Positions 3,737-61,518 of a stretch of 64,000 bases of DNA are shown here, one piece after another (positions within the stretch are counted from its first letter, which is position 1; each line of letters starts with the position of its first letter). The stretch comes from Chitinophaga pinensis. GTDB lineage: Bacteria > Bacteroidota > Bacteroidia > NS11-12g > UBA9320. A program made the translations under genes and the position numbers. Location of the stretch: assembly GCA_945897885.1 (NCBI GenBank), contig CAMDGU010000003.1:6339-70338 (forward strand), written 5' to 3'. The notes beneath the pieces are model-generated. The model searched no databases, was not told the DNA's origin, and saw only the letters and a list, made by a program, of their open reading frames with translations.

Positions 3737-3747
3737 CAGGTTAGCAG

Positions 3748-30460: not shown

Positions 30461-30592
30461 CTTCTCTATTTTATTTGGTTAACTTGTTTGTTAAGATAAT
30501 TATTATGTAAAACTATTAAATATTTTACAAACATTCATCTTTTTACCCAATTTACATAATAAATTTACGATATTTTTGTTTTGGATATAGTT

Positions 30593-33500
30593 ATGACACA
30601 CAAACTTTTTAAAATGTTGCTTGGGTTGGCAATAATTATTTTTTCATTAACCAATGCATCTGCTCAAATCAAACATTTTAATATCACATGGAATTCCAAT
30701 GCACAAACTTTTCCGGGAAATTTTAATGGCTCACAAGAAGATTTTTATGCAAAAGAAAAATATTTTCCAATTTGGGCATACACTGAAATTACTGGCCAAA
30801 ATAAGTTTGAAGTTATTTTAGTTAATGAAGTTTATGAGCCAATTACTGATAATCCTAAATTTAGAGAGTACCTTAAAAATAATGTATCATTTTTAGCTTT
30901 AAATAGTGATGAGAGAGAACAAAATAGGATTAAAGTAAAGATTGTTCCATATCGAGTAAATGGTGCAAATCTTGAACGGTTGATTCGTTTTGATTTGAAT
31001 TTTAAGCAAATTGAATCAAATCAAATAAAGCTTAATAAAAAAGGGAACAAAACACAATCGGTGCTTGCTGCAGGAGATTGGTATAAGCTAAAAATCAGTG
31101 AAGACGCTGTATATAAATTAGACAAAGCCTTTTTTGTGAAGCATTCTATCAATACAGATAATATTGAGTTATCTAAATTTAAAATATTTGGGAATGGTGG
31201 TGGAATGTTGCCGGAAATTGTGGCAGAGAATAGACCAGATGACCTTATTGAAAATGCAATTAAGATAAACGATGGTAATGGGAATAATAAATTGGATGAC
31301 GGTGATTACATATTATTTTATGGAAAGGGCCCTGATAGCTGGAAAGAAAATTCGATTGACTATACCCATGTAAAAAATGTTTATTCTGATTTTGCTTTCT
31401 ATTTTTTAAACTGGGGGGAGGGTGCCGGTAAGCGATTGTCAGAGTCGGGTGCCGGTGAGGGTAACAGTTTTTTAAAAGCAATTAACGAATCGGATTATTT
31501 ATATGTTCACGAGGAAGAATCATTTAATTTGAGGAACAGCGGACGAGAATGGTTTGGGGAGGTTTTGACCATTGAAAATAAATCATTTGATGTATCAATA
31601 CCTGATTTAATTTTAGGCTCACCAAGTTTAATAAAGTCGGAAGTAGCCATCCGGACAGGAATTTTTACAAATGTGAACGTATACTTAAATGATGATAAAA
31701 ATCCATTTGTAATCCATTCAGGTTCTCCCGTGGTATTTGATAATGATGATAATTTTGCCAGCATAGATAATCGTGGCAGGCAATTTTTTCCTTCATCATC
31801 TTTTAAGTTAACTTATGAATTTTACAGGCCTCAGCTAAGTTCTGAAGCCTGGCTCAATTATTTTGAAATTCAGAGTAAACGAAAATTGAAACCGATAGAT
31901 GGTCAAATTCATTTTTTTAATTTGGATTCAAAAATTACGGGTAATATTAAATACCAAATTGATAATTTTACTTCAGATTACACACTTTGGGATGTAACAG
32001 ACCACCATAATATAAGCGTTCAAAAAACCTTTTCTGATATTGATAAGACTTCATTTATAGTAAATGGAAGCAGTAAATTATTAAGGTATTTACTTTTTAA
32101 AAATGGAGCGGAAAAAACACCCGAAATGGTGGGTAAATTAGAAAACCAAAATTTACATAATCTGTCAGCAGTTGACTATATAATAATAACCCACCCTGAT
32201 TATAGAGTTCAGGCTGAAAAATTGGTAAAATTCCATCAGGAGCGTGAAGGGTATTCTTATTTGATTACATATCCAGAAAAAATTTACAATGAGTTTTCGA
32301 GTGGGGCATTAGATATTACAGCTATTCGCGATTTTGTAAAAATGCTCTACGATAGAGCAGACGTTACTAATAAGCCAAAAGCTCTCTTATTATTTGGTGA
32401 TGCCAGTTTTGATTATAAAAACCGCATTAACAATGGTAATATGGTTCCAACGTTTGAAAGTTATGAATACAATAATTCAGTGAGCAGTTATTGCTCTGAC
32501 GATTATTATGTAATATTGGATGACTCGGAAGGTTATTGGCCTTTGGACCCTGGAAAATTTTTAGAATCAATGGATATGGGAGTAGGCCGATTGCCGGCAA
32601 AATCATCTTATGAGGCCGATGTAATGGTAGATAAATGCATCCATTATAAAACAAATTCTAATAAAGGAGAATGGCGAAGTTCATTAACTTTTTTAGGGGA
32701 TGATGAGGATTACGATGTTCACATGGAGGATTCCGAAAAATTAACAAGTTTGTGTGAAAAAGAATTACCCCCGTCAAATATTACAAAAATATATTTGGAT
32801 GCTTACAAGCAAGCATCTCTTGGTAATGGGAATGCTTATCCCGATGTAAATGAAACTATAAATAATACTATTGCTAAAGGTACTTTGGTTTTTAATTACC
32901 TTGGACATGGAGGAGGAAGCGGAATGGCTCATGAACGGGTGGTAACTCGACCAATGATATTGGGATGGAGAAACTATGATAAACTTACTTTTTTTGTAAC
33001 AGGAACCTGCGACTTGGCTCAATATGATAATCCAAAAGAAGAATCACCGGGAGAATTGATGATGATAAACGATGTAGGAGGTGCTATTGGTATGATGACC
33101 ACAACCCGAAAAGTTTACATAGGATTAAACACGGATTTTTCTGTTATACTTTTTAGAAACAATTTATTTGCACGAGATGGTAATCATTTTACAACCTTTG
33201 GTGATGCTTATAAAAATGTTAAAAATGTAATGGTTAGCTCTTCAAACGTTAGAAATTACGTGATGTTTGGTGACCCATTATTAGATCTTAATTTACCGGT
33301 TCAAAAAACAATAATTACCGCCATTAATGGAAATACGGTAAATGCCTTATCAAAGGATACGCTAAAAGCTTTATCAAAAGTAGAAATAAGTGGTTCTGTT
33401 GTAAATCTTTCGGGCAATGTAATTACAGATTTTAATGGGGATGTTTCAGTTACACTTTTTGATAAAAAGCAAACCTTTAAAACATTAGCTAATGACCCAA

Positions 33501-34390
33501 CGAGTTCAGTTCTTCCATTTTCTACCCGAAATAATGTGCTTTACAGAGGCAAGGCATCAGTCACCAACGGAAATTTTAAAGTATCATTCATTTTGCCAAA
33601 AGATATTGATTATTCAGTGGGAACCGGCAGGATTTTTACCTATGCCTACAATGACAAAACAGATGCAATGGGAGTTTATGATAGCGCGATGGTTGGGGGT
33701 ACATCAAGCAATTTGGTGGCCGATAATAAAGGACCGGATATTGAAGTTTTTTTAGAAGATGAAAAATTTACAAATGGTGGAATCGTAAATAATAATCCAT
33801 TACTAATTATAAAATTATGGGATGAAAATGGAATTAATACAGCGGGAAACGGAGTAGGAAGAGAAATTTTGGGGATTTTGGATAAGGGGAAGGAAACTTC
33901 AAAAAATTATATTCTTAATGATTTTTATTCTACAAAGCTTGATAGTTTTCAGGGAGGAGAAGTTCGATTTAAATTAGCCGATATAGCCCCCGGAACCCAT
34001 ACATTGAGCGTAAGAGCATGGGATGTTTATAATAACAGTAACGAAAATCAAGTTGAATTTTTGGTGGCCTCCGATGAAAATATGGCCATAAAGAATTTAT
34101 TAAACTATCCAAATCCATTTACCACTAAGACTAATTTTCATTTTGACCATAATAAATCAGGACAGGAGTTAAATATTGCCATTAATATTTTCTCTATAAG
34201 CGGTCGGGTTGTTAAAACACTTTATGCAAAAATTCCTAATGCATCATCGCATGTAAGTGAAATAGAATGGGATGGAAAGGACGAATACGGGCAAATCCTT
34301 GCAAAGGGCGTATATATCTACAAAATCAAAGTAAAATCGGAGGATGGAAAATCTGAAGAAGAGTTTCAAAAAATGGTGTTGTTAAAATAG
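30593..34390 (+). CDS. porU: T9SS sortase/transpeptidase PorU (peptidase C25)
   Basis: GDWYKLKI, FGDASFDYK, GVGRLP, NYLGHGG (His) and TGTC (Cys) catalytic motifs, C-terminal CTD (NYPNPFT); ATG 30593 follows TATTTTTG box at 30571-30578. Confidence 0.95.
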   Translation: MTHKLFKMLLGLAIIIFSLTNASAQIKHFNITWNSNAQTFPGNFNGSQEDFYAKEKYFPIWAYTEITGQNKFEVILVNEVYEPITDNPKFREYLKNNVSFLALNSDEREQNRIKVKIVPYRVNGANLERLIRFDLNFKQIESNQIKLNKKGNKTQSVLAAGDWYKLKISEDAVYKLDKAFFVKHSINTDNIELSKFKIFGNGGGMLPEIVAENRPDDLIENAIKINDGNGNNKLDDGDYILFYGKGPDSWKENSIDYTHVKNVYSDFAFYFLNWGEGAGKRLSESGAGEGNSFLKAINESDYLYVHEEESFNLRNSGREWFGEVLTIENKSFDVSIPDLILGSPSLIKSEVAIRTGIFTNVNVYLNDDKNPFVIHSGSPVVFDNDDNFASIDNRGRQFFPSSSFKLTYEFYRPQLSSEAWLNYFEIQSKRKLKPIDGQIHFFNLDSKITGNIKYQIDNFTSDYTLWDVTDHHNISVQKTFSDIDKTSFIVNGSSKLLRYLLFKNGAEKTPEMVGKLENQNLHNLSAVDYIIITHPDYRVQAEKLVKFHQEREGYSYLITYPEKIYNEFSSGALDITAIRDFVKMLYDRADVTNKPKALLLFGDASFDYKNRINNGNMVPTFESYEYNNSVSSYCSDDYYVILDDSEGYWPLDPGKFLESMDMGVGRLPAKSSYEADVMVDKCIHYKTNSNKGEWRSSLTFLGDDEDYDVHMEDSEKLTSLCEKELPPSNITKIYLDAYKQASLGNGNAYPDVNETINNTIAKGTLVFNYLGHGGGSGMAHERVVTRPMILGWRNYDKLTFFVTGTCDLAQYDNPKEESPGELMMINDVGGAIGMMTTTRKVYIGLNTDFSVILFRNNLFARDGNHFTTFGDAYKNVKNVMVSSSNVRNYVMFGDPLLDLNLPVQKTIITAINGNTVNALSKDTLKALSKVEISGSVVNLSGNVITDFNGDVSVTLFDKKQTFKTLANDPTSSVLPFSTRNNVLYRGKASVTNGNFKVSFILPKDIDYSVGTGRIFTYAYNDKTDAMGVYDSAMVGGTSSNLVADNKGPDIEVFLEDEKFTNGGIVNNNPLLIIKLWDENGINTAGNGVGREILGILDKGKETSKNYILNDFYSTKLDSFQGGEVRFKLADIAPGTHTLSVRAWDVYNNSNENQVEFLVASDENMAIKNLLNYPNPFTTKTNFHFDHNKSGQELNIAINIFSISGRVVKTLYAKIPNASSHVSEIEWDGKDEYGQILAKGVYIYKIKVKSEDGKSEEEFQKMVLLK

Positions 34391-34475
34391 TTGAATATTA
34401 AAAATTAATTCTAATTTTGTCGGATTACTTCTAAACGATAACGAGTGAAAAGACAATTACTTAAAAAATTAAATC

Positions 34476-35705
34476 ATGCTTAAAAAGAATCTATTAATAT
34501 TAGGAGTTTTGCCATTTGTGTTAAGTATAACTTCACAAGCACAGGTTACATCAAAAGATGACTTATTAGGACAACGAAGAGTAATTACCACCGCTGTTCC
34601 GTTTTTAACAATAACTCCTGATTCGCGCAGTGCGGGAATGGGTGATGCCGGTGTAGCTCGTGATGGGGATGCCAACTCAATACATTGGAATATTGCCTCC
34701 ATGGCTTTTATACAAAAAAAAGCTGGTATGTCATTAAATGCAGCACCATGGTTAAGACAATTGGTGCCAGATGTTTGGTTTTATGATATGGCAGGATATT
34801 CAAAAGTTGGAAGCCGTAATCAAAGCGTTGTAACAGGTTCTATTCGGTATTTTTCATTAGGTGAAATACAATTTACAGATGATTTTGGTAATTCAAATGG
34901 AAACGCCACACCATACGAAATGGCTATTGATGTGGGGTATGCCACTCAGTTGTCTGAGAATTTTTCATTAGGAGGTGCCATGCGCTTTGTAAATTCGTGT
35001 CTTACTTGTGGAGCCACAGGAACTATAGGTTCTCAGTTTAAGCCGGGTCGTGCCGCAGCCGGTGATATAGGAGTGTACTATAAAAAACCTATAAAAATAG
35101 CTAAGAAAGATGTGAAATTGGCATTAGGAGCTACCATTACAAATATTGGAAACAAAATCACCTATTCTACATCTGCCGAAAAGGATTTTATACCTACAAA
35201 CCTGCGTTTAGGTACTAGTTTTGGTTTTAAAATAGATGATCACAATGAACTTAATTTTAACTTTGATATTAATAAACTGTTAGTTCCTACCTATCCAGTA
35301 TATTATACGAATGCAAATGGAGGAGATAGTATTTTTGACGGCAAAAAAGTGGTTCAGTATGGTAAAGAAAGTAAAGATGTTCCTGTAATATCAGGAATAT
35401 TTCAATCATTTGCCGATGCACCCGGAGGTTTTAAAGAAGAACTAAAGGAATATAATATTGCTACAGGATTTGAATATTGGTATGATAAGCAATTTGCCGT
35501 TCGTGCCGGTTATTTTAATGAGGCGGATACCAAAGGAGGAAGAAAATATGCAACCTTTGGTATTGGATTGCGCTACAATGTATTTGGAATAGATGCAGCG
35601 TATTTACAACCTTTTACTCAACGTCATCCTCTACAAAACACGATTCGTTTCTCCTTGTTATTTGATATTGATGCTTTCAAAAAGCAACAAGATGCCAAAA
35701 AGTAA
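34476..35705 (+). CDS. porV: T9SS outer-membrane shuttle PorV
   Basis: ITTAVPFLTITPDSRSAGMGDAGVA, YFSLGEIQFTD, NIGNKITY, GRKYATFG; downstream of porU; TAATTTTG box at 34412-34419. Confidence 0.95.
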   Translation: MLKKNLLILGVLPFVLSITSQAQVTSKDDLLGQRRVITTAVPFLTITPDSRSAGMGDAGVARDGDANSIHWNIASMAFIQKKAGMSLNAAPWLRQLVPDVWFYDMAGYSKVGSRNQSVVTGSIRYFSLGEIQFTDDFGNSNGNATPYEMAIDVGYATQLSENFSLGGAMRFVNSCLTCGATGTIGSQFKPGRAAAGDIGVYYKKPIKIAKKDVKLALGATITNIGNKITYSTSAEKDFIPTNLRLGTSFGFKIDDHNELNFNFDINKLLVPTYPVYYTNANGGDSIFDGKKVVQYGKESKDVPVISGIFQSFADAPGGFKEELKEYNIATGFEYWYDKQFAVRAGYFNEADTKGGRKYATFGIGLRYNVFGIDAAYLQPFTQRHPLQNTIRFSLLFDIDAFKKQQDAKK

Positions 35706-35781: not shown

Positions 35782-38253
35782 CTAATTTTTGTAGTCGGAT
35801 GTTTTTTCGGTTATATCAAATGTTACGGGCTTGGATACCTTTTCTTTTAATAAAGCCAAATCCAAAACCTGAAGCATGTTTACCGCGTAACGAAATTTAA
35901 GATCTTTGGTATAATCATTCCCAATATCTTCCACATCCTTGCTGTTATTTTCACACATTATTACTTCGTTAATACCGGCTCGCTTTGCAGCCAGTATTTT
36001 TTCTTTAATTCCACCTACCGGCAATATTTTACCGCGTAAGGTTATTTCACCTGTCATGGCCAAATTGGGTTTCACCTTACGTTGGGTAAACCATGAAGCT
36101 AGTGCGGTGAGGATGGTGATACCAGCCGATGGTCCATCCTTGGGTATAGCCCCCGCTGGAAAATGGATATGAACATCGTATTGGTCAAAAACCTTTGGAT
36201 TAATATCAAGGTAATCAGCATTGGCCTTTAAAAATGTAAGAGCAGTAATAGCTGATTCTTTCATCACATCGCCCAATTGGCCGGTAAGGGTAAGTTTGCC
36301 GTTCCCTTTGGTGGTTTTACATTCCACAAATAATATTTCACCACCTACCGATGTCCAGGCTAATCCGGTAACAACACCTGCAAAGCTATTATCCTGATAC
36401 ATTTCCTTATCGATGCGTTGACGGCCTAAAACTTTTTTTACAAAGGCTTCATCAATTTTTGCTTCAAATTCTTCTTCCCCAACTATTTGTTTGGCGCGGT
36501 ATCTGGCAAGCGAGGCAATTCGTTTTTCTAAAGCTCTTACTCCCGATTCGCGGGTGTAATTTTCAACCACAAGTTCAAGAATTTTATCTGTAAATTTTAA
36601 ATCACCTGATTTTATGCCATGTTCACCCAACTGTTTTTTTACAAGATGATTTTTCGCTATCTGCACTTTTTCTTCAACTGTGTACCCATTAATTTCAATA
36701 ATTTCCATACGGTCTAGCAATGCTGGTTGTATGGTATCTAGGGAGTTGGCCGTGGCTATAAACATAACCTTTGATAAATCAAATTCATGTTCCACATAAT
36801 TATCATAGAATGCTGTGTTTTGTTCAGGGTCTAAAATTTCTAATAAAGCCGATGAGGGGTCTCCTCTAAAGTCACGCCCAATTTTATCAACTTCGTCCAG
36901 CACAAAAACAGGATTAGCGGTACCCGCTTTTTTCAAAGCTTGTATTATCCGTCCCGGCATTGCACCTATGTAAGTTTTTCTATGACCGCGAAGTTCCGCC
37001 TCATCATGCATTCCGCCGAGGGACATTCTGGCATATTTTCTGCCAATGGATTGTGCAATGCTTTTACCCAAAGATGTTTTTCCAACTCCCGGAGGTCCGT
37101 ATAAACAAAGAATAGGGCTTTTAAAATCTCCCTTAAGTTTTAAAACAGCTAGATATTCTAAAATTCGTTCTTTAACCTTCTCCAAACCAAAATGGTCATT
37201 ATCAAGCACCTTTCTGGCTTTTTTTAAGTCGATAAAATCCTTACTATATTCATTCCATGGAAGTTCGAGTAACAATTCACAATAATTATAGGTAATTGAA
37301 AAATCGGGGGCTGCCGGATTGGTCCGCATTAATTTATCCAATTCCTTGTTAAAGGCTTTTGCTAATTTTTCATCCCATTTTTTTGCATTTGCTTTAATTC
37401 TTAAGGCTTCAATATCTTTATCAGGCGAATCTTGTCCCAATTCTTCCTGAATGGCACGCATCTGCTGGTGCAAGAAGTAATCGCGTTGTTGTTTGTCAAT
37501 ATCAACCTTGGCCTTGCTCTGAATTTGGTTTTTTAATTCAAGATGCTGCAATTCATTGTTGAGGTGGGAAAGCATTAAAGCAGATCGTTCATCAAAAGAT
37601 ATTGTGCCTAAAATGGTTTGTTTTTCATTGACACCAATATTTAAGTTTGACGAAATGAAATTAATAAGAAAATTAGGGCTGTCAATATTTTTTAAAGCAA
37701 AATTGGCTTCACTTGGAATATTAGGAGATAGCTCAATTATTTTCCCTGCCATATCGCGAATTGAAGCTAATAAAGCTTTACTCTCTTTGTTCTTTTTGGG
37801 TTTCTCATCAATAACAGGATGAGCCATACAAACCAGATAGGGAGTGTTTTTAACAGTTGTCTTTATTTCTATTTTCCTTCTTCCCTGCAAAATAGCTGTT
37901 GTATTTCCATCAGGCATTCGCAACATTCTAATAATTACAGCTTCAGTGCCAATTGAATACAAGTCTTCTAAACTTGGATCATCATTGTTAGAATCCTTTT
38001 GAGATACAACACCAATTATTTTATCTCTTTTGTAAGCATCTTTTATAAGTTTAACCGATTTATCTCTACCAACAGTAATTGGTATTACCACTCCTGGAAA
38101 TAAAACAGTATTTCGCAATGGTAGTATTGGTAATTCTTTTGGTTTGTGATTTTTCTCTGATTCGTCTTCTCCTTCCGGCGACATTAGGGCAATAAAATCG
38201 GTACCATCATTTTCAGGATCTGTTTCGTTAAATCTATATATATCTTTCTTCAT
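35782..38253 (-). CDS. lon: ATP-dependent protease La
   Basis: [33 protein letters not shown] (catalytic Ser), [14 protein letters not shown]; ATG 38253 preferred. Confidence 0.97.
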
Positions 38254-38300
38254 GGTCAAGATGTCAGTTTTGTTTTTTTTATCAATGAGGATTAAACAAG

Positions 38301-38315
38301 GCAATTGATATGCCA
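38301..38315 (-). promoter_or_regulatory. Candidate sigma54 (-24/-12) promoter for lon
   Basis: TGGCATATCAATTGC = GG-N10-GC, matching TGGCAC-N5-TTGC with one mismatch. Confidence 0.5.
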
Positions 38316-38407
38316 TAAATATTTGAAAGTACAAAGATTATCAGTTTTACAGTAAACCTTGTTAAAAACAAAAAATGGTTATTACTTTGCAAACAATTTA
38401 AAAAAAT

Positions 38408-40292: not shown

Positions 40293-41711
40293 TCATCTTT
40301 TTACAACTAGTTTTTTTATTTCACTGGCAAAATTGGAGGTGGTTATTTTGTAGAAGTAAAGTCCTTCAGTCAATCCATTTATATCTATCTCAAAGTTGCC
40401 TGAGGTACTTTCTAATTCAAAACGTTTTATAACCTGACCGTTTAGATTGGTTAGCTCAAAAATGGGCCTTTCAGATGAATTGGTTTTTATGTCATAAATA
40501 ATCTTAAAGCTAGAGGAAGCTGGGTTAGGCATTCCTGAAAATAAATTAACAACGGTTCTATTATTAGAAACAGGGGTAGAAAAATTATCTTCCGTTTCAA
40601 AAGCTAATGTGTCATCGGTAAGAGATTCATCTAAAAAAACAACGTTAGGTAGTGTATACCCATAGGTGCATTGGATAGTAGCAATAGTTGCAAATGAATC
40701 TGAAATAACTATCTCATCGGTAAAAACCCAATTCAATTTAGTACTTGATAGTGTGTCAACCGTAATATTTTTTTCTGATATTTCTTCATCAATATATAAT
40801 GTGTCAACGGAAGGTGGGATAAAAACAAGGTTAGATGTATAGTCAATTTTTTGTGTAGGAAGGGATATAATAGCTAAATTATTACTTTCCCAAGTACCTA
40901 CTCCATAAGTAAGTGATATGATTCCAAGTTCACTATTTACGCAGGGTTGGTAGTAGTTTTTATCAGTATTAATGCTTGAATCAATTATATAATAGGTTGG
41001 GTTTTCAAATTCAGAATTTAACTCGGGGCGGGTAAGTTTTACCAATAAATGGTCTTCATTTCTAAGCGTAAGATAAAAGGAAAGACCATTATCCGCCAAA
41101 GTTCCCGGGCAGTAATTATCTGCATTGTTTAAGAATGATTTGAATTCATAATTAATTCCATCTTGAGAGGCAAAGCTGGCAATTCGTTCATTCGAGTGAT
41201 CTCCATTGTAATAAACAAAAAGTTGACTCAAATCTTCAGTTAAGGATGGCCCCGAAATGAAAATACTGGTTGCCACCGAAATTTCACCACCTGTAAGATT
41301 GATTTTTAAAGGATTTTTAAAGCTTTTGCTTTGTTCATTGTAACTAGCTCTGTAAAGAGTTGTTGAAAATACGCCTTTGTTTTCATGGGTTACAAAAAAT
41401 ACTGTCTTTTCATCTTCAGTAAGCCAACAAGAAAAAATATCATCGCCTAAAACACCATCAATTAAAATTGATTTTGGATTTATAAATTCATCTGAAATGC
41501 TTTTTCGCTCAGCTTTCCAAATTTCATCCGAAGAATTATCTCTGGTAAAGTAAAGTCGTAATCCATCTTTTGATAGCCATGAATATGCATCCGCTTGGTT
41601 TTCCATATTTATTGGCATGTTTTGTGGTTCTAAAATTACTCCATCAGTAGTTTGAGCCATTGCAGCCATACTGCAAATTAAAGTTAAGGTTAATGCAAAG
41701 ATTGATTTCAT
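40293..41711 (-). CDS. T9SS type A cargo with TolB/PD40-like beta-propeller repeats
   Basis: Signal peptide; repeats SWLSKDGLRLYF, CWLTEDEKTVFF, PSLTEDLSQLFV, GTLADNGLSFYL; CTD MPNPAS...GLYFYKI...KKLVVKR. Confidence 0.8.
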   Translation of the reverse strand: MKSIFALTLTLICSMAAMAQTTDGVILEPQNMPINMENQADAYSWLSKDGLRLYFTRDNSSDEIWKAERKSISDEFINPKSILIDGVLGDDIFSCWLTEDEKTVFFVTHENKGVFSTTLYRASYNEQSKSFKNPLKINLTGGEISVATSIFISGPSLTEDLSQLFVYYNGDHSNERIASFASQDGINYEFKSFLNNADNYCPGTLADNGLSFYLTLRNEDHLLVKLTRPELNSEFENPTYYIIDSSINTDKNYYQPCVNSELGIISLTYGVGTWESNNLAIISLPTQKIDYTSNLVFIPPSVDTLYIDEEISEKNITVDTLSSTKLNWVFTDEIVISDSFATIATIQCTYGYTLPNVVFLDESLTDDTLAFETEDNFSTPVSNNRTVVNLFSGMPNPASSSFKIIYDIKTNSSERPIFELTNLNGQVIKRFELESTSGNFEIDINGLTEGLYFYKITTSNFASEIKKLVVKR

Positions 41712-41806
41712 AGAATTGATTTTCTTTTAACGAAGTTTTTAATAAAAAAAGTATTCGAAGTCCAATACTTTAGAAGCGGTAAAAAGTAAATGATAACTGG
41801 AAAATA

Positions 41807-44590: not shown

Positions 44591-44664
44591 TGTTTTTAAA
44601 TGCTTTTGTGAAAAACTCTTCAAGGGTTTTATACCCTTGAAGAGTTGAGTTGGATTTTTGGAAA

Positions 44665-45888
44665 TTATTCCTTGATCAGAATCCGTTCATTAAAAACATC
44701 TCCTTTATCGGTTGTAATCCTTAACAAATATAAACCGGGAGTAATGCCATCAGACGATAGTTCCTTTTGGCTGATGCCTTGTTTCATTTTGCCAACAGGG
44801 AATTGTTTTAACTCAGCCCCGTTTAGGGCAAAAATATAAACCACTACCGAGCATTCTTCCTTCAAATCCAGTTTTAGGTTAAAGTTATCCTTAGCAGGAT
44901 TGGGAAATACCAAGTATTTAGTAATGGCTTTGCTTTTGGTATTTTGGCAAGCTTCAAAGTAATTGCAGGAAACCACACTTTTGCCTTCGCAGGTTGAATC
45001 GTTGTTAAAGGTAATTTTAGAGCGGTTGCATGTTAAAGCAGCAATATCGTTTCGTATTTCATTGGCGGTTTTGTTATCCAATATTTTTAAGAACTTTTCG
45101 GTGGGTTCATACCAGAAAATAATATCGGGTCGTTGTTTTCTGGTAAGTTGATCCATGACTGAATAGTCATCACCTGATTTAACAAGAACAGGAATCAAAT
45201 TATAGCTTGAAATTTTTTCTAGTACATTTATGCTTGAATCAAAAGAAGCTTTAGCCCATTTTCCCAAATCATCTGATAGCCAAACTGGCTTTACATAAGT
45301 GGCTGAATCAAAATTATCAAGAGGTATATATAGTTTTATTTCATCTGATTTTTTATTGAATCCAATTTGAATTGCCAGAGGTTTACCCGTTTTCTTATCA
45401 GTTTGATATGGTATAGGGATTTGTTGAAATATTGTTTTGTTTGCAACTCTTATTAAAAGTTTTGCCAATTGTACTTCACTTAGCGTGATAGTTTTAATAG
45501 ATGAATTTTTGGCTGAGCCATTTGCCACCTCTTCAAATGATTTTCCTTCAGGTAGTTTTGCGTTTAAATCAATGCCTTTTAGGTGTTCATTATTGATTTC
45601 TGCATAATCTTTAATACGCTTTTTGTCTTCTGGATTTAATTCATTTAGTATGGCGTCATTAATATCGTACCAAAATATTTTATTTGCATCACTTCCTTTC
45701 AACCAAAGGCCAACCATTTTATATTTTTTGTTATTAAAATTTTGAAGTTGACTATAATCCCATTTCATATTGAATTCATCTAGCTCGCTAATTTGATTTG
45801 TCAAAGTATCGTAGGTAGAAAAAAAGGAGGGGAAAATTGTATTAACCGAATCCTTCACCAAATCCCAATTTCCTGTTCCGGTACTCAT
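44665..45888 (-). CDS. T9SS type A CTD-bearing ORF; distal part of the frameshifted anti-sigma candidate
   Basis: No signal peptide of its own; frame open upstream to 46080; ends CNYFEAC...LVFPNPAK...GLYLLRI...ERILIKE. Confidence 0.8.
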   Translation of the reverse strand: MSTGTGNWDLVKDSVNTIFPSFFSTYDTLTNQISELDEFNMKWDYSQLQNFNNKKYKMVGLWLKGSDANKIFWYDINDAILNELNPEDKKRIKDYAEINNEHLKGIDLNAKLPEGKSFEEVANGSAKNSSIKTITLSEVQLAKLLIRVANKTIFQQIPIPYQTDKKTGKPLAIQIGFNKKSDEIKLYIPLDNFDSATYVKPVWLSDDLGKWAKASFDSSINVLEKISSYNLIPVLVKSGDDYSVMDQLTRKQRPDIIFWYEPTEKFLKILDNKTANEIRNDIAALTCNRSKITFNNDSTCEGKSVVSCNYFEACQNTKSKAITKYLVFPNPAKDNFNLKLDLKEECSVVVYIFALNGAELKQFPVGKMKQGISQKELSSDGITPGLYLLRITTDKGDVFNERILIKE

Positions 45889-46048
45889 GTTAGTGCCATG
45901 TCTATTTGAATTGATAGCAAGTTCTCCCTCTCTATTTTTTCTATGATAAATAATTGGGTTAAAGGAGGTAAATCCTAATCTTCGTAGAAGTGCGGTATCA
46001 GGAAAAATAATTTGATTTTTATCTATTGCAATATTTTGCTTTGTATGT

Positions 46049-46972
46049 TTAATTTCTTCCTTTTTTTTTGTTTTTATCAGTTAGTGCATGTGAATAGAAG
46101 GTTTTATTCGAGTTGATATTTTTTTGGATACTTTCGGGTAATAAATTTATTAGTTTATCATTTATTTCAAACCAGGCTATATAAGGTTTACCTGCTTTTG
46201 ATGTTTCATCTTCCACCCAAACCGGTAATAAATTAGACGCAATTCTATAGGCTTCAATTTTACTTGGATTAAAAAACATACCTAATAAATCTTTAATATC
46301 ACCATCTTCAGTTGTTGCAAACATTGCCAATGGATTATCCCCGTTAGGATTTTCCATTTTTGAATGAGAAGTCATACTAATAAAGCTATTGTCTCCAAAA
46401 AAAGCTTTAAAACTTCCAAGTCTGGTATTCTCCATTTCATACATAAACACATCGTCCTTAATATAAATGCCAAGTCTTTTAAGTTCTGCTTTAGTAAGGA
46501 TAACAAAAGTGTTCTTGTCAAAGGAAATGTTGGTGCTATTGGTGTTAATTGTTTCAGGCCCTACTTCGCTTTTCGCAATTACTTTCTTCTTTTTACCTGT
46601 GTCATCAGCCCTCGGTGGGGGCTTGGTGGTGTAAGTAATTTTAGGTGGAGAAATTAGTAGCTGCTTGGCTTCCTCTATTTCAGTAACGGGATTTTTCAAA
46701 GGCACAATAGCCGTTTTTGCAATTTTTGAAGGTGTTTTTTTGAAGGATTTTTGGTTAGAATTAACATAAAATACGATGGTTGCGGCTATGCCTATTATCA
46801 GTGTTGAAATTGTCATGGCTTTAATTTTAAAGGTTTTAAAATTTTGATATTTATCGGTTGGTGTCCTAACCAAACGACCATTCATCAATCCCCGAATTTC
46901 ATCAGAATTCAATAAAACTTCCTGTTCTTTGGCCATATTGAAAAGCTTATTTAATTGTTCTTCATTTTGCAT
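46049..46972 (-). CDS. Putative membrane-anchored anti-sigma factor; proximal part, joined to 44665-45888 if the A9 run at 46061-46069 is one base shorter
   Basis: Starts 2 nt after the ECF sigma stop; ~50-aa soluble N-terminus, single TM (TISTLIIGIAATIVFYV), Pro/Lys linker, first repeat. Confidence 0.75.
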   Translation of the reverse strand: MQNEEQLNKLFNMAKEQEVLLNSDEIRGLMNGRLVRTPTDKYQNFKTFKIKAMTISTLIIGIAATIVFYVNSNQKSFKKTPSKIAKTAIVPLKNPVTEIEEAKQLLISPPKITYTTKPPPRADDTGKKKKVIAKSEVGPETINTNSTNISFDKNTFVILTKAELKRLGIYIKDDVFMYEMENTRLGSFKAFFGDNSFISMTSHSKMENPNGDNPLAMFATTEDGDIKDLLGMFFNPSKIEAYRIASNLLPVWVEDETSKAGKPYIAWFEINDKLINLLPESIQKNINSNKTFYSHALTDKNKKKGRN

Positions 46973-46974
46973 AA

Positions 46975-47520
46975 TCAGGATATTGCGGTATTGGTTTTTA
47001 AATTACTTAATGGGTTATCAAAAAGCTCGCGATCAAACTGCAGCATGGTTTCTAGCTTTTTTCTTCCCCGGTAAACATTTGTTTTTGTTGTGTTCAAGTT
47101 TATTTGCATTATTTCTGAAACTTCAACAAGGGTACACCCCGAAATTTCAAACAAAACAATGGCTTCTGCTTCCTCCGGTTTTAGTTTAGCAATACAGTGG
47201 TAAAGCATGTTTAAGGAAATGGCATCATCTGTTTTTTCATTACTTGCTTTACTATTTGCTTTTTCCAAGCTTAAAAACTGTACTATTTTTTTTCGTCTTA
47301 ATTTTTTTTTGAACAAGCGGCTGGCAATACCAAACAAAAAATATTTAAACTTTTCTGGCTCTTTCATTTTCTCAAAGCTTTCAAAGGCTGCCAGCACCGT
47401 TTCGCTCATTAAGTCTTTGGCATCATCCTCATCTTTCATTACTGCGCGGCAATAGCAACTCAACTCATGTTTAAAGTTTTCATATAATAGTATAAATTGC
47501 TCTTGCAGTAGTTTTTGCAT
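46975..47520 (-). CDS. ECF-type sigma-70 family RNA polymerase sigma factor
   Basis: 181 aa; region 2 DAKDLMSETVL...FKYFLFGIA; region 4 EAIVLFEISGCTLVEVSEIM...TKTNVYRGRKKL. Confidence 0.92.
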   Translation of the reverse strand: MQKLLQEQFILLYENFKHELSCYCRAVMKDEDDAKDLMSETVLAAFESFEKMKEPEKFKYFLFGIASRLFKKKLRRKKIVQFLSLEKANSKASNEKTDDAISLNMLYHCIAKLKPEEAEAIVLFEISGCTLVEVSEIMQINLNTTKTNVYRGRKKLETMLQFDRELFDNPLSNLKTNTAIS

Positions 47521-47557: not shown

Positions 47558-47588
47558 ATAAGTTCCTTCAAAGGCTTATTTAGTTTCA
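47558..47588 (-). promoter_or_regulatory. Possible ECF-type autoregulatory promoter
   Basis: TGAAAC-N17-GAACTTAT upstream of the sigma gene; no exact TAnnTTTG box seen there; inference only. Confidence 0.3.
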
Positions 47589-47724: not shown

Positions 47725-49692
<1,968 letters not shown>

Positions 49693-55503: not shown

Positions 55504-55801
55504 AAATTATTAACTCAAAAAACCAATCATATATTGAATTTATTAAGGAAAAAGTAATTGAAATGGCAATTTTTTAGAATAGCATATTTATAATTAGGAA
55601 GGTATATTAGGTCAAATACAGGTAATAAAATTTCCTTTTTTTAAAGCTTTAATCCGTTTGAAGCATTGAAAATAATAGTAAGTTTTAAAATCCATTAATA
55701 ATTTGAAGGAATGAATTTGGTCGAAAAAAATGTAATATTTTAGTAAAGGACTTCTTTATACAAATAATGTTCCTATTTTTGTTTAAAGTAATTTATATAA
55801 C

Positions 55802-57070
55802 ATGAAAAAACTATTTCTAACTTTAACCTTAGCCGCTTCCATGGTTTCGGCTTTTGGTCAAAATTCGAAGGCTATTGTTTCAAATGGCAATTTTGTTCAA
55901 ATTGGTGATTTTGATCCCGGAAATGCTTCGTTTTCAAATAATCAATTTCTTGGAATTGTAGAAACCAATCCAAAGGATTTTATTTATGATGCCAAAAATG
56001 GTCATGCTATTTACCAAGATAAATTTAATGGTTTGGTTTTTTGTAGTATTTCAGGAAATCAGGTAACGACCAAAAATGTTTTTATGATTACTACGGTTAT
56101 GGCTCCCGTTTACATTCCTTCAGCCGAAAAGATTGTTTGTTTTAGTGTTCAAAAAGAATTTAATGGGTATGGTAGTAATGAGGATAATTTGTTCCTTTCC
56201 ACTATTGATGTTAAAAAAGGGATTACCAAGAACATTTTAAAATTTACAGATTTATCAATTAATGATGTTGCAGCACCATTTTATGGAATAAATAATGTGA
56301 TGGATAGATTTACTGGTAAAATGACTGAAAAGGAAGTAGCTATAAGCAAACCAATGTATGTGGCTGAAAAGGATTTGTATGTTGTATTGATTCGTGATGT
56401 TACAGGAACAAACCGTTTGTACAAATTGCATGTTACTTCTTCTAATGCTCTGGCTTCAAGCGCACGTTGTGATTATAATATTATTGATATGACCCATGTT
56501 TCGGGCACTGATATTGCAAAAACATTGTTCTTTGAAAAATCGGGTACCACAAATATTTTAAAAGTGGGTGATTTTAATATTACAACCAATAGTATGAGCA
56601 ATGTCTCCGTTATTACTACCTTTACCGGGGCTGAGGTTAATAACGGTTCAATTAAATTTAGTATAGACCAAACTCAATTATTTGTTTCACGTTTTGATGG
56701 AAATAAAACTACCATTTACAATTTGAACACTTTAAATAATCAATCTGCATCTTCCGTTAATTATTCTGGATACATTCAATTTGATTATGGATTTAATGAT
56801 TCGTATTACAAAAAACATACCCGTGGTGATATTATAGGATTGTACCCAAATCCATCTACAGGATTGGTTTATTTTAAAAACAATACTGGGTTTGTTCCCA
56901 GTTCAATAAAGGTTTATGATAATATTGGTCAATTGGTTCGTTCTATTAAGATTGAAGAAATCAGTTCCGAAATACAAATAGATTTGAATGATATGGCTCC
57001 GGGTATGTATAATATAACAGTTGATATGCCAGGTGAAGATTTTAATGGTAAAGTTATTATAACCAACTAA
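55802..57070 (+). CDS. T9SS type A cargo protein, beta-propeller-like body, function unknown
   Basis: Signal peptide; CTD LYPNPSTG...GMYNITV...GKVIITN; TATTTTTG box at 55774-55781. Confidence 0.85.
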   Translation: MKKLFLTLTLAASMVSAFGQNSKAIVSNGNFVQIGDFDPGNASFSNNQFLGIVETNPKDFIYDAKNGHAIYQDKFNGLVFCSISGNQVTTKNVFMITTVMAPVYIPSAEKIVCFSVQKEFNGYGSNEDNLFLSTIDVKKGITKNILKFTDLSINDVAAPFYGINNVMDRFTGKMTEKEVAISKPMYVAEKDLYVVLIRDVTGTNRLYKLHVTSSNALASSARCDYNIIDMTHVSGTDIAKTLFFEKSGTTNILKVGDFNITTNSMSNVSVITTFTGAEVNNGSIKFSIDQTQLFVSRFDGNKTTIYNLNTLNNQSASSVNYSGYIQFDYGFNDSYYKKHTRGDIIGLYPNPSTGLVYFKNNTGFVPSSIKVYDNIGQLVRSIKIEEISSEIQIDLNDMAPGMYNITVDMPGEDFNGKVIITN

Positions 57071-58222: not shown

Positions 58223-58309
58223 GATATATTTAGCATTGGGAGTTAAGCTATTTAATCCCGATACATTATTATAAAGAATACCATTACTTTGTAAATTCAT
58301 TACACTACT

Positions 58310-59308
58310 ATGAAAACTTTAATTCTGCTAATTGCTTTTTTAACGAATACCATTTTGTTGATTGCTCAAAATACGAGTAGTCTTCGCTTTGATGGTGTGG
58401 ATGATCATGTCTATATCGGTACAGACACGGTTTTTAGTATTCGCGATAGTATTACATTAGAGGCTTGGGTGAAATGCGATTCATTGCAAACCAACAACTT
58501 TGCCCGTATCATTGATAAGCTGGATTATACAAATAAAAGAGGATTTAATATTAGATTAGATTATGGAAGTGTGTTATTTCAATGTATGGTTTCAGATGGT
58601 TCGGGCAATAACCTTAGAAGTACAAAAAAAATACAAGACAATAAATGGCATCACATAGCCGGAACCTATGATGGCCGCATAATGAGGCTTTATATTGATG
58701 GAAAACAAGAAAAATTTGGAGATGTGGTAGGCACTTTTAGTATAAATGCTAATAGCCAACAACCCTTAGCCATAGCAATATCGTATGATAATGCCACTGC
58801 CAATCCCTTTAAAGGATCTATTGACGAGGTTCGCATTTGGAACATAGCCCGCGATTCAGTCCAAATACGAAAGGGTAAAGACAGTTGTTTGAGAGGTAAT
58901 GAAAAAGGATTAGTCGGGTATTGGCAGCTTAATGAGAATAAGGACACTATTGCTTATGATAAATCTAAGAATAAAAGTAATGGGATTTTAAAGAATGGGG
59001 TAAATTGGAGTACCGATGTTGGATTTAAGGAATTATGTATTACGGCAGCAGTAGATAACAATTTTGACAAGATTAGGTGTGCTGTATATCCTAATCCTAT
59101 AACTGAAAATAGCATCATTGATTTGAGCAATTTTAAGGGGATAGTTAGCATTAAAATTTTGAACTCGCAAGGATCATTAATAAAGGAATATAATTCAGTT
59201 GGTTCTTATTTTAATCTGAATAAGAATGATTTTTATTCGGGATTATATTTTATTTCAATTTCAAATTGGCAAAATTTTCAAACCTATGTAAAGTTTATTG
59301 TTCCTTAA
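58310..59308 (+). CDS. LamG-like jellyroll domain T9SS type A cargo
   Basis: SLRFDGVDDHV, ITLEAWVK, WHHIAGTYDG, FKGSIDEVRIWN, GLVGYW; CTD VYPNPIT...GLYFI. Confidence 0.88.
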   Translation: MKTLILLIAFLTNTILLIAQNTSSLRFDGVDDHVYIGTDTVFSIRDSITLEAWVKCDSLQTNNFARIIDKLDYTNKRGFNIRLDYGSVLFQCMVSDGSGNNLRSTKKIQDNKWHHIAGTYDGRIMRLYIDGKQEKFGDVVGTFSINANSQQPLAIAISYDNATANPFKGSIDEVRIWNIARDSVQIRKGKDSCLRGNEKGLVGYWQLNENKDTIAYDKSKNKSNGILKNGVNWSTDVGFKELCITAAVDNNFDKIRCAVYPNPITENSIIDLSNFKGIVSIKILNSQGSLIKEYNSVGSYFNLNKNDFYSGLYFISISNWQNFQTYVKFIVP

Positions 59309-59413
59309 ATCTGTAATTAAAGCTAGGGTGAGTTAAATTAATTATTAAATTAGTTTGCTTTTGATAAAGCATTTGTTAGATTTGTTTTAATTAAACTACT
59401 AACATAAAAATTT

Positions 59414-61513
59414 ATGAAAAGTCAATTGCTTAGCAATCAGGGTATTGCTATCTCCCCTTACCTAAAACCACTAAGTTTCACTGCTGAGGTAGTGTCCCGT
59501 AGAAATTCACCACTTAGTTTCTGTTTTTTATTGTTCACTTTTCTGTCAGCACAGAATTTATTTGCACAATACACGTATTCAACGCCAGGAACCTATCTCA
59601 TTGATGATAATGGAAATAATCCACCTATGGTGTATGGTGATGGAATAACTGTTGAAGCAGGGGTAACTCTTATAATAGAGAATCGTGAGGCCGGATTGAA
59701 TTTAGTTTTTAATAACAACAAAGGTATAACAGTAGATGCAGGAGCACACCTCATTGTAAGAAACTCAATTCTTGAAACTGATACTTCTTATCAATGGAGT
59801 GGTATCTATGTTAATGGAAGTGGAAATGGTGATGAACAGTATTTATTAGCACCTAAAATTCCAGCAGCGCCACTTGGCACTTCTAATGTTTCTGAATGGG
59901 AAGGTGTTATAAATAATACCGACATGGGATGGGTGGAATTTTATGCTTCAACAATTGACAATGCCTCTGATGGCATACGATCAGTCAATGGAGGAGTAAT
60001 ATGGGTGGATGGAAAAAATTCAAATGAAGATGCCACATTTTTAAATTGCAGAAATGGTGTACTAATTGAACCTTATCTTTCAGACCAATGCCCCAATGTG
60101 AATGCTTGCCATATAATGCAAGCAGATTTTCTTTGGGACACCTATAATACAGTTATTGGGCTTGGTTTAAGAAAGCAATTGACTGGTATTCTATTGCAAA
60201 GTGTAAGAGGAGTTAATATTGGAGGATGTAATTTTAAAAATACAATTAGTGGGCAATTTTGTTTAACAGACAGAGCTACAGGAATAAGGTCCTTAAGTTC
60301 TGATTTTACATTATCAAAATCAGGAAATGCATTTAGTTACGATGAACAAGGTTGCTTAGATAACTTTTATTTCAATTTAACACCACCTCCAACAAGTCGT
60401 GGCAATACTTTTGAGCAGTTGTCAACTGGAATTGAAATAAAGTTAGATGCCGGAAACGGAAATTCTTATCGCAGTTTTAATTCTATAAGGCATTCAACTT
60501 TTACAAATAATTTTAGTTCAGTTGTTTCGGAAAACAGCAATTCTTTAATTGTTAATAAATGCTCGTTTACGGGTGAAAGAAGTGTCTTAAATAGCTTGTT
60601 TGGATTATATGTTTATGGGCAAAATAACACTTTATCTTGCGAGCTAGGTTATATTTCTACTTCTTTATATGTAGATATACACACTTCAGGAACATGTGGT
60701 GTAAGAATTTTAGATAATACATTTGATTTTGACAAACGAAATGTTCATCATATAGAAGTATTTGGTTCTGACATTTCACCAAATTATTCATCATTTATTA
60801 AAAAGAATACATTTACGAATTCATACCTATCTCCTGGTTCAGTTCACGCAATAAATAGTGACAATGTAAAGGCAATTGTATTGGATGGCGTTTGTACAAA
60901 TTTAGATGTGACTTGTAATACATTTAATGAATTTGGGAATGACATTTTTATTGGAACAAGTGGAGTAGTTTCAGATTTTAAAAAGGTTGGTCTAGTGTAT
61001 TATTCACCAAGCAATATTCTTTCATCAGGACTATCAGGGAGAGACCAGATTTATAGTGAAAGTACAGTAATGTCTCCATATCCTGTATATAAAAGTAAGA
61101 TTGGTGGGGTCTATTCGCCCCCAGCTTCCGCTCGTTGGGTAACACCATCATCAGATTTTATTGACGAGATAGGTTGCGATTATACTTGTACTGATTTACT
61201 GGATGGTTTGCCCGACCCAGCACCTTGTACTTTGGGTACTGTAGCAAAAATAAGAACGATTCCCTCAAATGCATTAAAAATTTATCCAAACCCAACCTCA
61301 GGCGATATTTATTTAGATATAGTTTTTAGAGGGGCTGATATGAATTATAGTATTCAGGTACTAAGTCTTGATGGCAAAGTAGTAAAAGAAATAGCAATTA
61401 AAAACTTAGGAAATAACAATTCGATAAACTTTCACGAACTTAATACAGGTCTATATTTGGTAAAGGTGGCAACAGCCAATCATAATTTATCAGGTAGGGT
61501 CCTTTTAAAATAA
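59414..61513 (+). CDS. T9SS type A cargo with probable parallel beta-helix repeats
   Basis: Long signal peptide ending NLFAQ; ITVEAGVTLII, WSGIYV, Asn/Cys-rich NxF ladders; CTD IYPNPTSG...GLYLVKV; TAGATTTG box at 59377-59384. Confidence 0.82.
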   Translation: MKSQLLSNQGIAISPYLKPLSFTAEVVSRRNSPLSFCFLLFTFLSAQNLFAQYTYSTPGTYLIDDNGNNPPMVYGDGITVEAGVTLIIENREAGLNLVFNNNKGITVDAGAHLIVRNSILETDTSYQWSGIYVNGSGNGDEQYLLAPKIPAAPLGTSNVSEWEGVINNTDMGWVEFYASTIDNASDGIRSVNGGVIWVDGKNSNEDATFLNCRNGVLIEPYLSDQCPNVNACHIMQADFLWDTYNTVIGLGLRKQLTGILLQSVRGVNIGGCNFKNTISGQFCLTDRATGIRSLSSDFTLSKSGNAFSYDEQGCLDNFYFNLTPPPTSRGNTFEQLSTGIEIKLDAGNGNSYRSFNSIRHSTFTNNFSSVVSENSNSLIVNKCSFTGERSVLNSLFGLYVYGQNNTLSCELGYISTSLYVDIHTSGTCGVRILDNTFDFDKRNVHHIEVFGSDISPNYSSFIKKNTFTNSYLSPGSVHAINSDNVKAIVLDGVCTNLDVTCNTFNEFGNDIFIGTSGVVSDFKKVGLVYYSPSNILSSGLSGRDQIYSESTVMSPYPVYKSKIGGVYSPPASARWVTPSSDFIDEIGCDYTCTDLLDGLPDPAPCTLGTVAKIRTIPSNALKIYPNPTSGDIYLDIVFRGADMNYSIQVLSLDGKVVKEIAIKNLGNNNSINFHELNTGLYLVKVATANHNLSGRVLLK

Positions 61514-61518
61514 GTACT

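Follow-up and report, generated by a model that had tools for sequence, protein, structure and literature searches.

The 64,000-nucleotide (nt) stretch analysed here, which we call the window, comes from contig CAMDGU010000003.1 of the Chitinophaga pinensis assembly GCA_945897885.1 (positions 6,339 to 70,338). On its minus strand lies a gene for an extracytoplasmic function (ECF) sigma factor, followed by a gene for a putative anti-sigma partner that ends in a type A C-terminal sorting domain (CTD) of a type IX secretion system (T9SS). The order on this strand is gyrB (47725-49677), a terminator-like hairpin (47704-47673), the sigma gene and the partner gene; by direct reading, the ATG of the partner gene stands 2 nt past the sigma stop codon. 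We propose that the locus is probably a two-gene, autoregulated operon of an ECF sigma factor and its anti-sigma factor. Its main elements are:

47562-47588, minus strand: promoter-like motif of the ECF type (TGAAAC-N16-GGAAC), lying 41 nt upstream of the sigma start codon
46975-47520, minus strand: ECF (group IV) sigma-70 factor of 181 amino acids (aa); PF04542 37.3 bits, PF08281 45.6 bits, TIGR02937 61.6 bits
46049-46972, minus strand: 5' part of the partner gene as read with nine A residues (A9), 307 aa; N-terminal domain, transmembrane (TM) helix, tether and module 1, then a stop codon
46061-46069, minus strand: A9 homopolymer run; A8 restores a 768-aa frame
44665-46080, minus strand: 3' part of the partner gene, the frame being open from stop to stop; end of module 1, modules 2-3, Cys motif and CTD
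44612-44646, minus strand: terminator-like hairpin CTCTTCAAGGG-N7-CCCTTGAAGAG followed by TTTTT, 3' of the partner stop codon (direct reading)

The sigma factor possesses region-2 and region-4 domains only (Sigma70_r2 and Sigma70_r4_2) and passes the ECF superfamily model TIGR02937, the cut-off of which is 42.9 bits; among the NCBIfam ECF subgroup models, none was matched at its cut-off. The hairpin behind gyrB was listed by the terminator consensus scan and follows that gene; it forms the 5' boundary of the operon. At the other end, the convergent clpB lies beyond the hairpin and T-run of the partner gene, a hairpin that was not among the matches of the same scan. The AAC-type -35 element of the promoter-like motif is of the kind typical of ECF promoters. 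Since the same bipartite motif, TG(A/T)AAC-N16-G(G/C)(A/C)AC, is found 5' of the sigma genes in the window and at eight other loci (L001, L002, L003, L004, L006, L007, L008 and L012), it suggests that the sigma operon is autoregulated. The window holds three matches to this degenerate pattern, with 0.23 expected, and two to the exact TGAAAC-N16-GGAAC, with 0.12 expected. The second exact copy (44760-44786, minus strand) was rejected as a promoter candidate: it lies within the coding region of the CTD, faces only the terminator, is not conserved in the syntenic locus L001 and is probably due to chance.

As deposited, the partner gene is broken. Its two open reading frames, ORF1 and ORF2, overlap solely across an A5-C-A9 tract, and removal of one A yields a single protein of 768 aa, as the earlier note had argued when it corrected the frameshift. 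Public data bear this out. An intact 768-aa ORF (P0001) differs at 1 aa; the JGI contig on which it lies (L009) has A8 and is 99.86% identical to the window in DNA over 2949 nt. Intact homologues of 763-1176 aa (P0001-P0008 and P0010) cover 100% of the fused sequence, so that the gene is by no means always found as two. Eight A residues were also present in Logan contigs from 16/16 lake or aquatic metagenome runs, five of which (X1-X5) are, apart from the missing A, identical to the window over the stretch compared. In more distant orthologues the A run is interrupted (AAAAGGAAGG). The A9 form is nevertheless not confined to one assembly. It recurs at 2322-2330 of L013, a MEGAHIT short-read contig from another ENA sample, which has 1 mismatch to the window in 6224 nt and gene calls of 307 and 407 aa, as in the window; a 407-aa ORF with a substitution of its own is present in a third assembly, from JGI (P0356), which suggests that this assembly has A9 as well. 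Based upon this comparison, which is of assembled contigs rather than of reads, the partner gene is a single ORF in most of the population, and the A9 frameshift does not characterise the gene family. Either A9 represents a genuine minor allele, owing to a frameshift specific to one lineage or to slipped-strand phase variation, or the same homopolymer error has occurred repeatedly. Programmed -1 ribosomal frameshifting at the A run was considered and rejected, because relative to ORF1 the frame of ORF2 is +1 and a -1 slip would not join them. Joining requires the loss of one A or the gain of two, through mutation or transcriptional slippage, and slippage to A8 could rescue an A9 gene. The 307-aa product of the A9 form keeps the N-terminus, TM helix, tether and module 1 and loses the CTD; it would, if real, represent a natural "uncoupled" variant.

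The wider family was collected with a profile (A3) which ends before the Cys motif and the CTD, searched against 1.84 billion cluster representatives (50% identity clusters). It matched 396 representatives at E <=1e-3, 198 at <=1e-10 and 38 at <=1e-30. Among the 150 best of the 396, our own CTD hidden Markov model (HMM) places a CTD at the extreme C-terminus in 133, and the Pfam CTD was confirmed on samples and in 55/56 precomputed annotations, other members scoring 42-69 bits. Most of the 17/150 without a CTD are short fragments. A profile free of the CTD thus recovers proteins that end in one, which argues that the CTD is integral to the family. Members are named in the databases only as "hypothetical protein" or "T9SS type A sorting domain-containing protein".

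An ECF sigma gene lies directly upstream of the partner gene, overlapping it or separated from it by no more than 11 nt, in the window and in 11/11 other informative contexts (L001/L002, L003, L004, the P0012 contig, L005, L007, L008, L010, L011, L012 and the P0127 contig); one more context is cut by a contig end and uninformative. Both the sigma adjacency and the CTD, which the earlier note had proposed to look for in homologues, are therefore conserved. L001/L002 is the syntenic orthologue of the window, L004 and L010 are syntenic with each other, and L007 and L008 are metagenome-assembled genomes (MAGs) of Bacteroidales; together the sigma/partner loci present at least eight different flanking contexts. 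Twenty sigma and partner matches from two independent searches sit on contigs of equal size. In the contexts inspected, no third gene is conserved beside the pair.

The fused protein was modelled with AlphaFold2 (AF2) on P0001, using a 150-sequence family alignment (mean predicted local distance difference test, pLDDT, 80; predicted template modelling score, pTM, 0.74). From the N-terminus to the C-terminus, it comprises:

46883-46963, minus strand: two conserved helices of the cytoplasmic N-terminus (aa 4-16 and 23-30), presumed to bind the sigma factor; AF2 pLDDT 76-83
46760-46816, minus strand: single TM helix, N-in (aa 53-71), from hydropathy; AF2 helix 56-71
46544-46759, minus strand: disordered tether rich in Pro, Lys, Ser and Thr (aa 72-143); AF2 pLDDT <50
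46058-46540, minus strand: module 1 (aa 145-305), an unrecognised alpha/beta domain; iterated HMM 4.5e-47
45598-46038, minus strand: module 2 (aa 312-458); iterated HMM 2.9e-18 and AF2
45016-45504, minus strand: module 3 (aa 490-652); iterated HMM 5.4e-24, its core (aa 506-585) being hypervariable or mosaic between close strains
44947-44967, minus strand: CNYFEAC motif (C669-C675; C669 at 44967) in a four-Cys stretch, C..C..CNYFEAC, directly before the CTD (direct reading)
44668-44925, minus strand: type A T9SS CTD (aa 683-768); PF18962 33.7 bits, TIGR04183 36.2 bits

The N-terminal pattern [LI]xx[FL]Fxx[FA][KR]xxP(P)...ExVxx[LI][IL] is kept across 138 cluster representatives, and this region presumably binds the sigma factor. 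Whether the hydrophobic segment behind it is an anchor or a signal peptide was judged from hydropathy, charge bias and residue conservation. Over 136 members, the region before the segment is 38-59 aa long with a median of 51 (51 aa in the window protein), and the median apolar stretch is 19 aa long. In the same set the 12 residues before the helix carry a mean of 3.3 K+R as against 1.5 after it, and 0.08 D+E as against 1.6, giving a net charge of about +3.2 before and about 0 after. The family has no conserved AxA-type cleavage site after the helix, the consensus there being W-x-N/T-P. Because of the long conserved n-region, the 19-aa apolar stretch, the positive-inside bias and the lack of a conserved AxA, the segment has, as judged from sequence, the character of a textbook N-in signal anchor and not of a Sec signal peptide, in agreement with the retained anchor that had been postulated. 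The tether between the helix and the first module varies from 42 to 534 aa (median 88 in 122 members; about 75 aa in the window protein) and is polar, rich in S, K, N, E, T and P and poor in aromatics. The short soluble N-terminus, the single TM helix and the Pro/Lys linker described by the earlier note are thus all present, and the layout is kept across hundreds of representatives.

The helix opens with a strongly conserved K-x-I-I-M-T-S motif; at the position of Met53 (46814-46816), 78% of 138 representatives have Met. This site might serve as a packing or site-2-protease determinant; alternatively it might be an internal start codon from which a second, signal-peptide-like product is made.

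One might argue that the partner is no regulator at all but normal T9SS cargo, an adhesin or binding protein with an unusually long cleaved signal, and simply the first target gene of the sigma factor. The database annotation of the family as sorting-domain proteins would suit this, as would the sequence VNS|N past the helix of the window protein, which obeys the -3/-1 rule, and the possibility of an internal start at the conserved Met. A Sec signal peptide, however, is a poor match for the n-region, the apolar stretch and the absence of a family-wide cleavage motif; the close translational coupling with the sigma gene seen in all contexts is the hallmark of an anti-sigma factor, and no third conserved gene is available to serve as one. 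We regard plain cargo as very improbable.

The CTD exceeds the thresholds of both Por_Secre_tail (PF18962, 27 bits) and TIGR04183 (23 bits), which upholds the assignment to type A made from the motifs. AF2 predicts a beta-sandwich (683-766) at pLDDT >90, and Foldseek matched it to mirolase (8qb1_A) and RemZ (8gl8_D), both at TMt 0.70, to RemA (8gl6_D) at 0.59 and to PorU (6za2), with a probability of 1.0 but an E-value of only ~3e-3. Among the close relatives compared it is the most conserved segment of the protein. With its fit to the type A models and to the fold of solved CTDs, and with the strongest conservation, the domain looks functional. The window also contains T9SS genes and further candidate substrates:

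30563-34387, plus strand: PorU, T9SS sortase (NF033707, 1210 bits)
34473-35702, plus strand: PorV, outer-membrane shuttle (NF033710, 464 bits)
40296-41726, minus strand: Por_Secre_tail ORF above the Pfam threshold
55787-57067, plus strand: Por_Secre_tail ORF above the Pfam threshold
58295-59305, plus strand: Por_Secre_tail ORF above the Pfam threshold
59408-61510, plus strand: Por_Secre_tail ORF above the Pfam threshold

Given PorU, PorV and these four other CTD proteins, the organism has machinery which recognises and processes type A CTDs. The porU-porV pair lies ~10 kb from the sigma/partner operon and is followed by lon (35785-38337, minus strand); its nearness to the operon may be coincidental. 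These data also bear upon a second alternative, namely that the partner is an ordinary anti-sigma factor sensing in the periplasm and that its CTD-like beta-sandwich is an Ig-like structural or binding domain with no T9SS role. The moderate Pfam score of the window protein (33.7 bits), the weak Foldseek E-value together with matches to generic Ig-like domains, and the two family members that do without a CTD all leave room for it. Weighed against this are the higher scores of other members, the position of the domain at the extreme C-terminus with the type A motifs kept (PNPA, GxYLL and the terminal R/K strand), the occurrence of the family only in Bacteroidota-type MAGs, and the presence of PorU and PorV in the window. 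An Ig-like domain unrelated to secretion seems to us distinctly unlikely.

Among the four additional Por_Secre_tail ORFs, one has a Laminin_G_3 domain. The ORF at 61498-63999, after the one at 59408-61510, has PKD domains and runs past the window end. The patch is dense in T9SS cargo genes. A TamB-like protein of 1464 aa (3745-8136, plus strand; PF04357, 143.5 bits) belongs to an ordinary envelope biogenesis context.

Between the tether and the CTD, three modules of ~150 aa are well predicted by AF2 as alpha/beta domains, with a pLDDT mostly >90 in module 1. The module HMM, seeded with module 1 and then iterated, revealed 1-5 copies per family member, 2 or 3 being the most common; in P0004 and P0006 two modules have been added. 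Profile searches of the modules against Pfam, NCBIfam and PDB sequences gave no match, and Foldseek of the whole AF2 model against the PDB returned only CTD-sized matches and none for the modules. The Cys cluster noted earlier before the CTD is present as described, and in about two thirds of the 150 representatives the pattern C.[YFW]F[EDQ].C stands ~100 aa before the C-terminal end. The four-Cys stretch is a lower-confidence part of the AF2 model; its residues may form disulfides or bind a metal.

Comparison of close relatives revealed that both ends of the protein are conserved and its middle part is mosaic. Over aa 1-458, P0002 matches P0001 at 100% identity, which falls to 29% in the module-3 core. 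In P0008, modules 1-2 are down to 31-45%, with the C-terminal part of module 3, the Cys stretch and the CTD at 84-92%. Where modules drop to 29-46% identity, the CTD stands at 88-93%. Such a pattern would fit conserved partners at both ends, the sigma factor inside and the T9SS outside, with a diversifying and possibly exposed ligand-binding middle.

The module-3 core (45217-45456, aa 506-585) occurs in two sharply distinct allelic types across otherwise divergent lineages, P0001/P0003/P0005/P0007 having one and P0002/P0004/P0006/P0008 the other; P0002 equals P0001 elsewhere. This distribution points to a recombining hypervariable cassette.

We propose, with a probability that we put at about 55%, that the 768-aa partner is a Dma-like, envelope-spanning anti-sigma factor in which T9SS targeting takes the place of an outer-membrane barrel. 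The conserved cytoplasmic N-terminus of ~50 aa would hold the sigma factor, the single TM helix would anchor the partner in the inner membrane, and the disordered tether (at least 42 aa) would cross the periplasm to a distal end made of the variable alpha/beta modules and the conserved CTD. As a working T9SS signal, the CTD would dock or deliver this end to the T9SS and the outer membrane, so that one polypeptide could link the outer membrane or cell surface with the cytoplasmic sigma factor. The distal signal might be a ligand bound by the variable modules, or else T9SS engagement, pulling or processing, and would lead to regulated proteolysis of the tether or the TM helix and release of the sigma factor. 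Sigma binding, export or docking, and proteolytic release are all steps that we infer, as are the surface sensor and the export checkpoint which the earlier note had offered as alternatives.

Several points weigh against this proposal. T9SS cargo normally leaves the inner membrane once its signal peptide has been cleaved, and a polypeptide threaded through the SprA/Sov translocon might jam it. In Porphyromonas gingivalis, PorA variants lacking the cleavage site still signalled and were not transported to the surface (PMC12152298). Searches of the N-termini of 10 members against Pfam and NCBIfam, at E up to 10, found no recognised anti-sigma domain, those considered being ASD/ZAS zf-HC2, RskA, FecR, RsgI_N and DUF4179. 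An AF2 model of the sigma factor fused to partner residues 1-110 reached a pLDDT of only 58.8 and a pTM of 0.33, too low to speak for or against binding; it was made for L008, the only locus with sigma and partner in the same frame (TAA read as Gln, table 6), from an unpaired alignment of 12 sigma rows and 62 N-terminal rows. Two long members, P0121 and P0127, have no CTD, and the domain is therefore not strictly required. Family members all come from uncultured organisms, and a search of RNA runs found no metatranscriptome holding the locus and no expression or proteomic data.

The CTD-less P0127 (850 aa), which lies downstream of an ECF sigma gene, has a weak, sub-threshold match to Pfam DUF6556 at residues 35-92, its juxtamembrane and TM region (E 0.0044); ten other members gave no match to DUF6556.

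Perhaps the T9SS itself actuates the anti-sigma factor, as a mechanical checkpoint through which sigma activity would report secretion or gliding competence or, later, surface contact. In that case the PorV/SprA translocon would capture the CTD of the inner-membrane-tethered partner, and the machine, powered by the proton motive force, would drive the distal modules outward. With the N-terminus still anchored, export would strain the tether or TM helix or expose it to proteolysis, leaving a surface-attached ectodomain and free sigma factor, and the A8/A9 tract would give strains a heritable means of uncoupling the switch. We offer direct actuation as a speculation and think it doubtful.

The PorA observations also support another alternative, in which the partner senses the status of the T9SS from within the periplasm. 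Its CTD would act as a pseudo-substrate on a tether, binding components of the T9SS (PorV, PorM/N-like) or a periplasmic partner, and occupancy of the secretion machinery would set sigma activity. The PorA CTD activates PorXY-SigP via periplasmic PorY, and PorA tethered to the inner membrane signals without export (PMC12152298); the retained anchor in the present family speaks against full export, and the CTD is strongly constrained. On the other hand, a pure CTD presenter would have no need of 2-5 large, fast-evolving mosaic modules, which look like an exposed ligand-binding or surface region, and the median tether of 88 aa is of the length needed for reaching the outer membrane. On these grounds we consider a periplasmic status sensor unlikely.

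The closest known counterparts of the envelope-spanning anti-sigma factor proposed here are Dma1 and Dma2 of Bacteroides, in which a sigma-binding region at the N-terminus is followed by a TM helix, a long disordered tether and an end directed to the outer membrane (PMC10927553, PMC13088901). The likeness extends to the phylum Bacteroidota, the operon with an ECF sigma gene, the short cytoplasmic N-terminus, the single TM helix, the disordered tether, the outer-membrane destination (proposed in the present family) of the C-terminus and the build as a single polypeptide; it rests on domain layout as published rather than on a comparison of N-terminal sequences, and the sigma partner group of Dma is ECF21. 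Dma differs in ending in an eight-stranded outer-membrane beta-barrel (OMP_b-brl_2), whereas the present family ends in soluble alpha/beta modules and a type A CTD. No OMP_b-brl match was found in the 768-aa protein with Pfam, and the AF2 C-terminus consists of modules and the beta-sandwich.

In Porphyromonas gingivalis, PorXY-SigP receives its signal from the PorA CTD, which binds PorY on the periplasmic side (PMC7712824, PMC12152298). There, as proposed for the present family, a T9SS CTD has a regulatory role besides its role in export, with an ECF sigma factor as the output. PorA, however, is free cargo with a cleaved signal and acts via a two-component system, SigP having no such anti-sigma factor, whereas in the present family the CTD is covalently part of the membrane-anchored partner of the sigma factor.

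More distant parallels can be drawn with three other types of system. RsgI/SigI of Clostridium thermocellum and Bacillus shares the single-pass topology and, on the present proposal, the short N-terminal sigma-binding domain and a surface-displayed sensing module on a linker; RsgI, in contrast, resides in a Gram-positive envelope with no outer membrane, carries no secretion tag and has ectodomains that are carbohydrate-binding modules or glycoside-hydrolase-like, and its N-terminal domain PF12791 was undetected in the present family. FecI/FecR/FecA cell-surface signalling and the Bacteroidota trios of ECF sigma factor, anti-sigma factor and SusC-like protein pass, as is proposed for the present family, a signal from the outer membrane to an ECF sigma factor through a single-pass anti-sigma factor, but their outer-membrane component is a separate TonB-dependent transducer, and the present family has neither a FecR domain nor a conserved third gene. 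With FlgM/sigma-28 and other secreted anti-sigma factors it would share the principle that an anti-sigma factor, as substrate of a secretion machine, reports the competence of that machine; FlgM, unlike the present protein, is soluble and exported whole from the cytoplasm, whereas the partner, with its inner-membrane anchor, would come into contact with the T9SS on the periplasmic side alone.

The earlier note had known of no characterised system with this architecture. This holds for the CTD fusion, which appears to be unpublished, full-text literature searches having found no paper on an anti-sigma factor with a T9SS CTD; it was too sweeping with regard to the Dma family, which has the same layout, and to the PorA CTD, both of them close precedents. 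The family appears to belong with the envelope-spanning, single-polypeptide anti-sigma factors of Bacteroidota and not to be categorically new.

Outside P. gingivalis, little is understood of how the T9SS and its cargo are regulated, and the question of how Bacteroidota sense at their surface has only begun to be addressed by the discovery of Dma in 2024. If our proposal is true, the family would represent a second, structurally different build of envelope-spanning anti-sigma factor, with at least 396 cluster representatives at 50% identity, and it would pose the mechanistic question of whether the T9SS can cope with a substrate that keeps its anchor in the inner membrane. It also defines a new extracytoplasmic domain of ~150 aa with mosaic variation at the strain level. 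In the freshwater Bacteroidota bacterium from which the window derives, the pairing of sigma factor and partner may connect gene control with the cell surface or with the secretion machinery.

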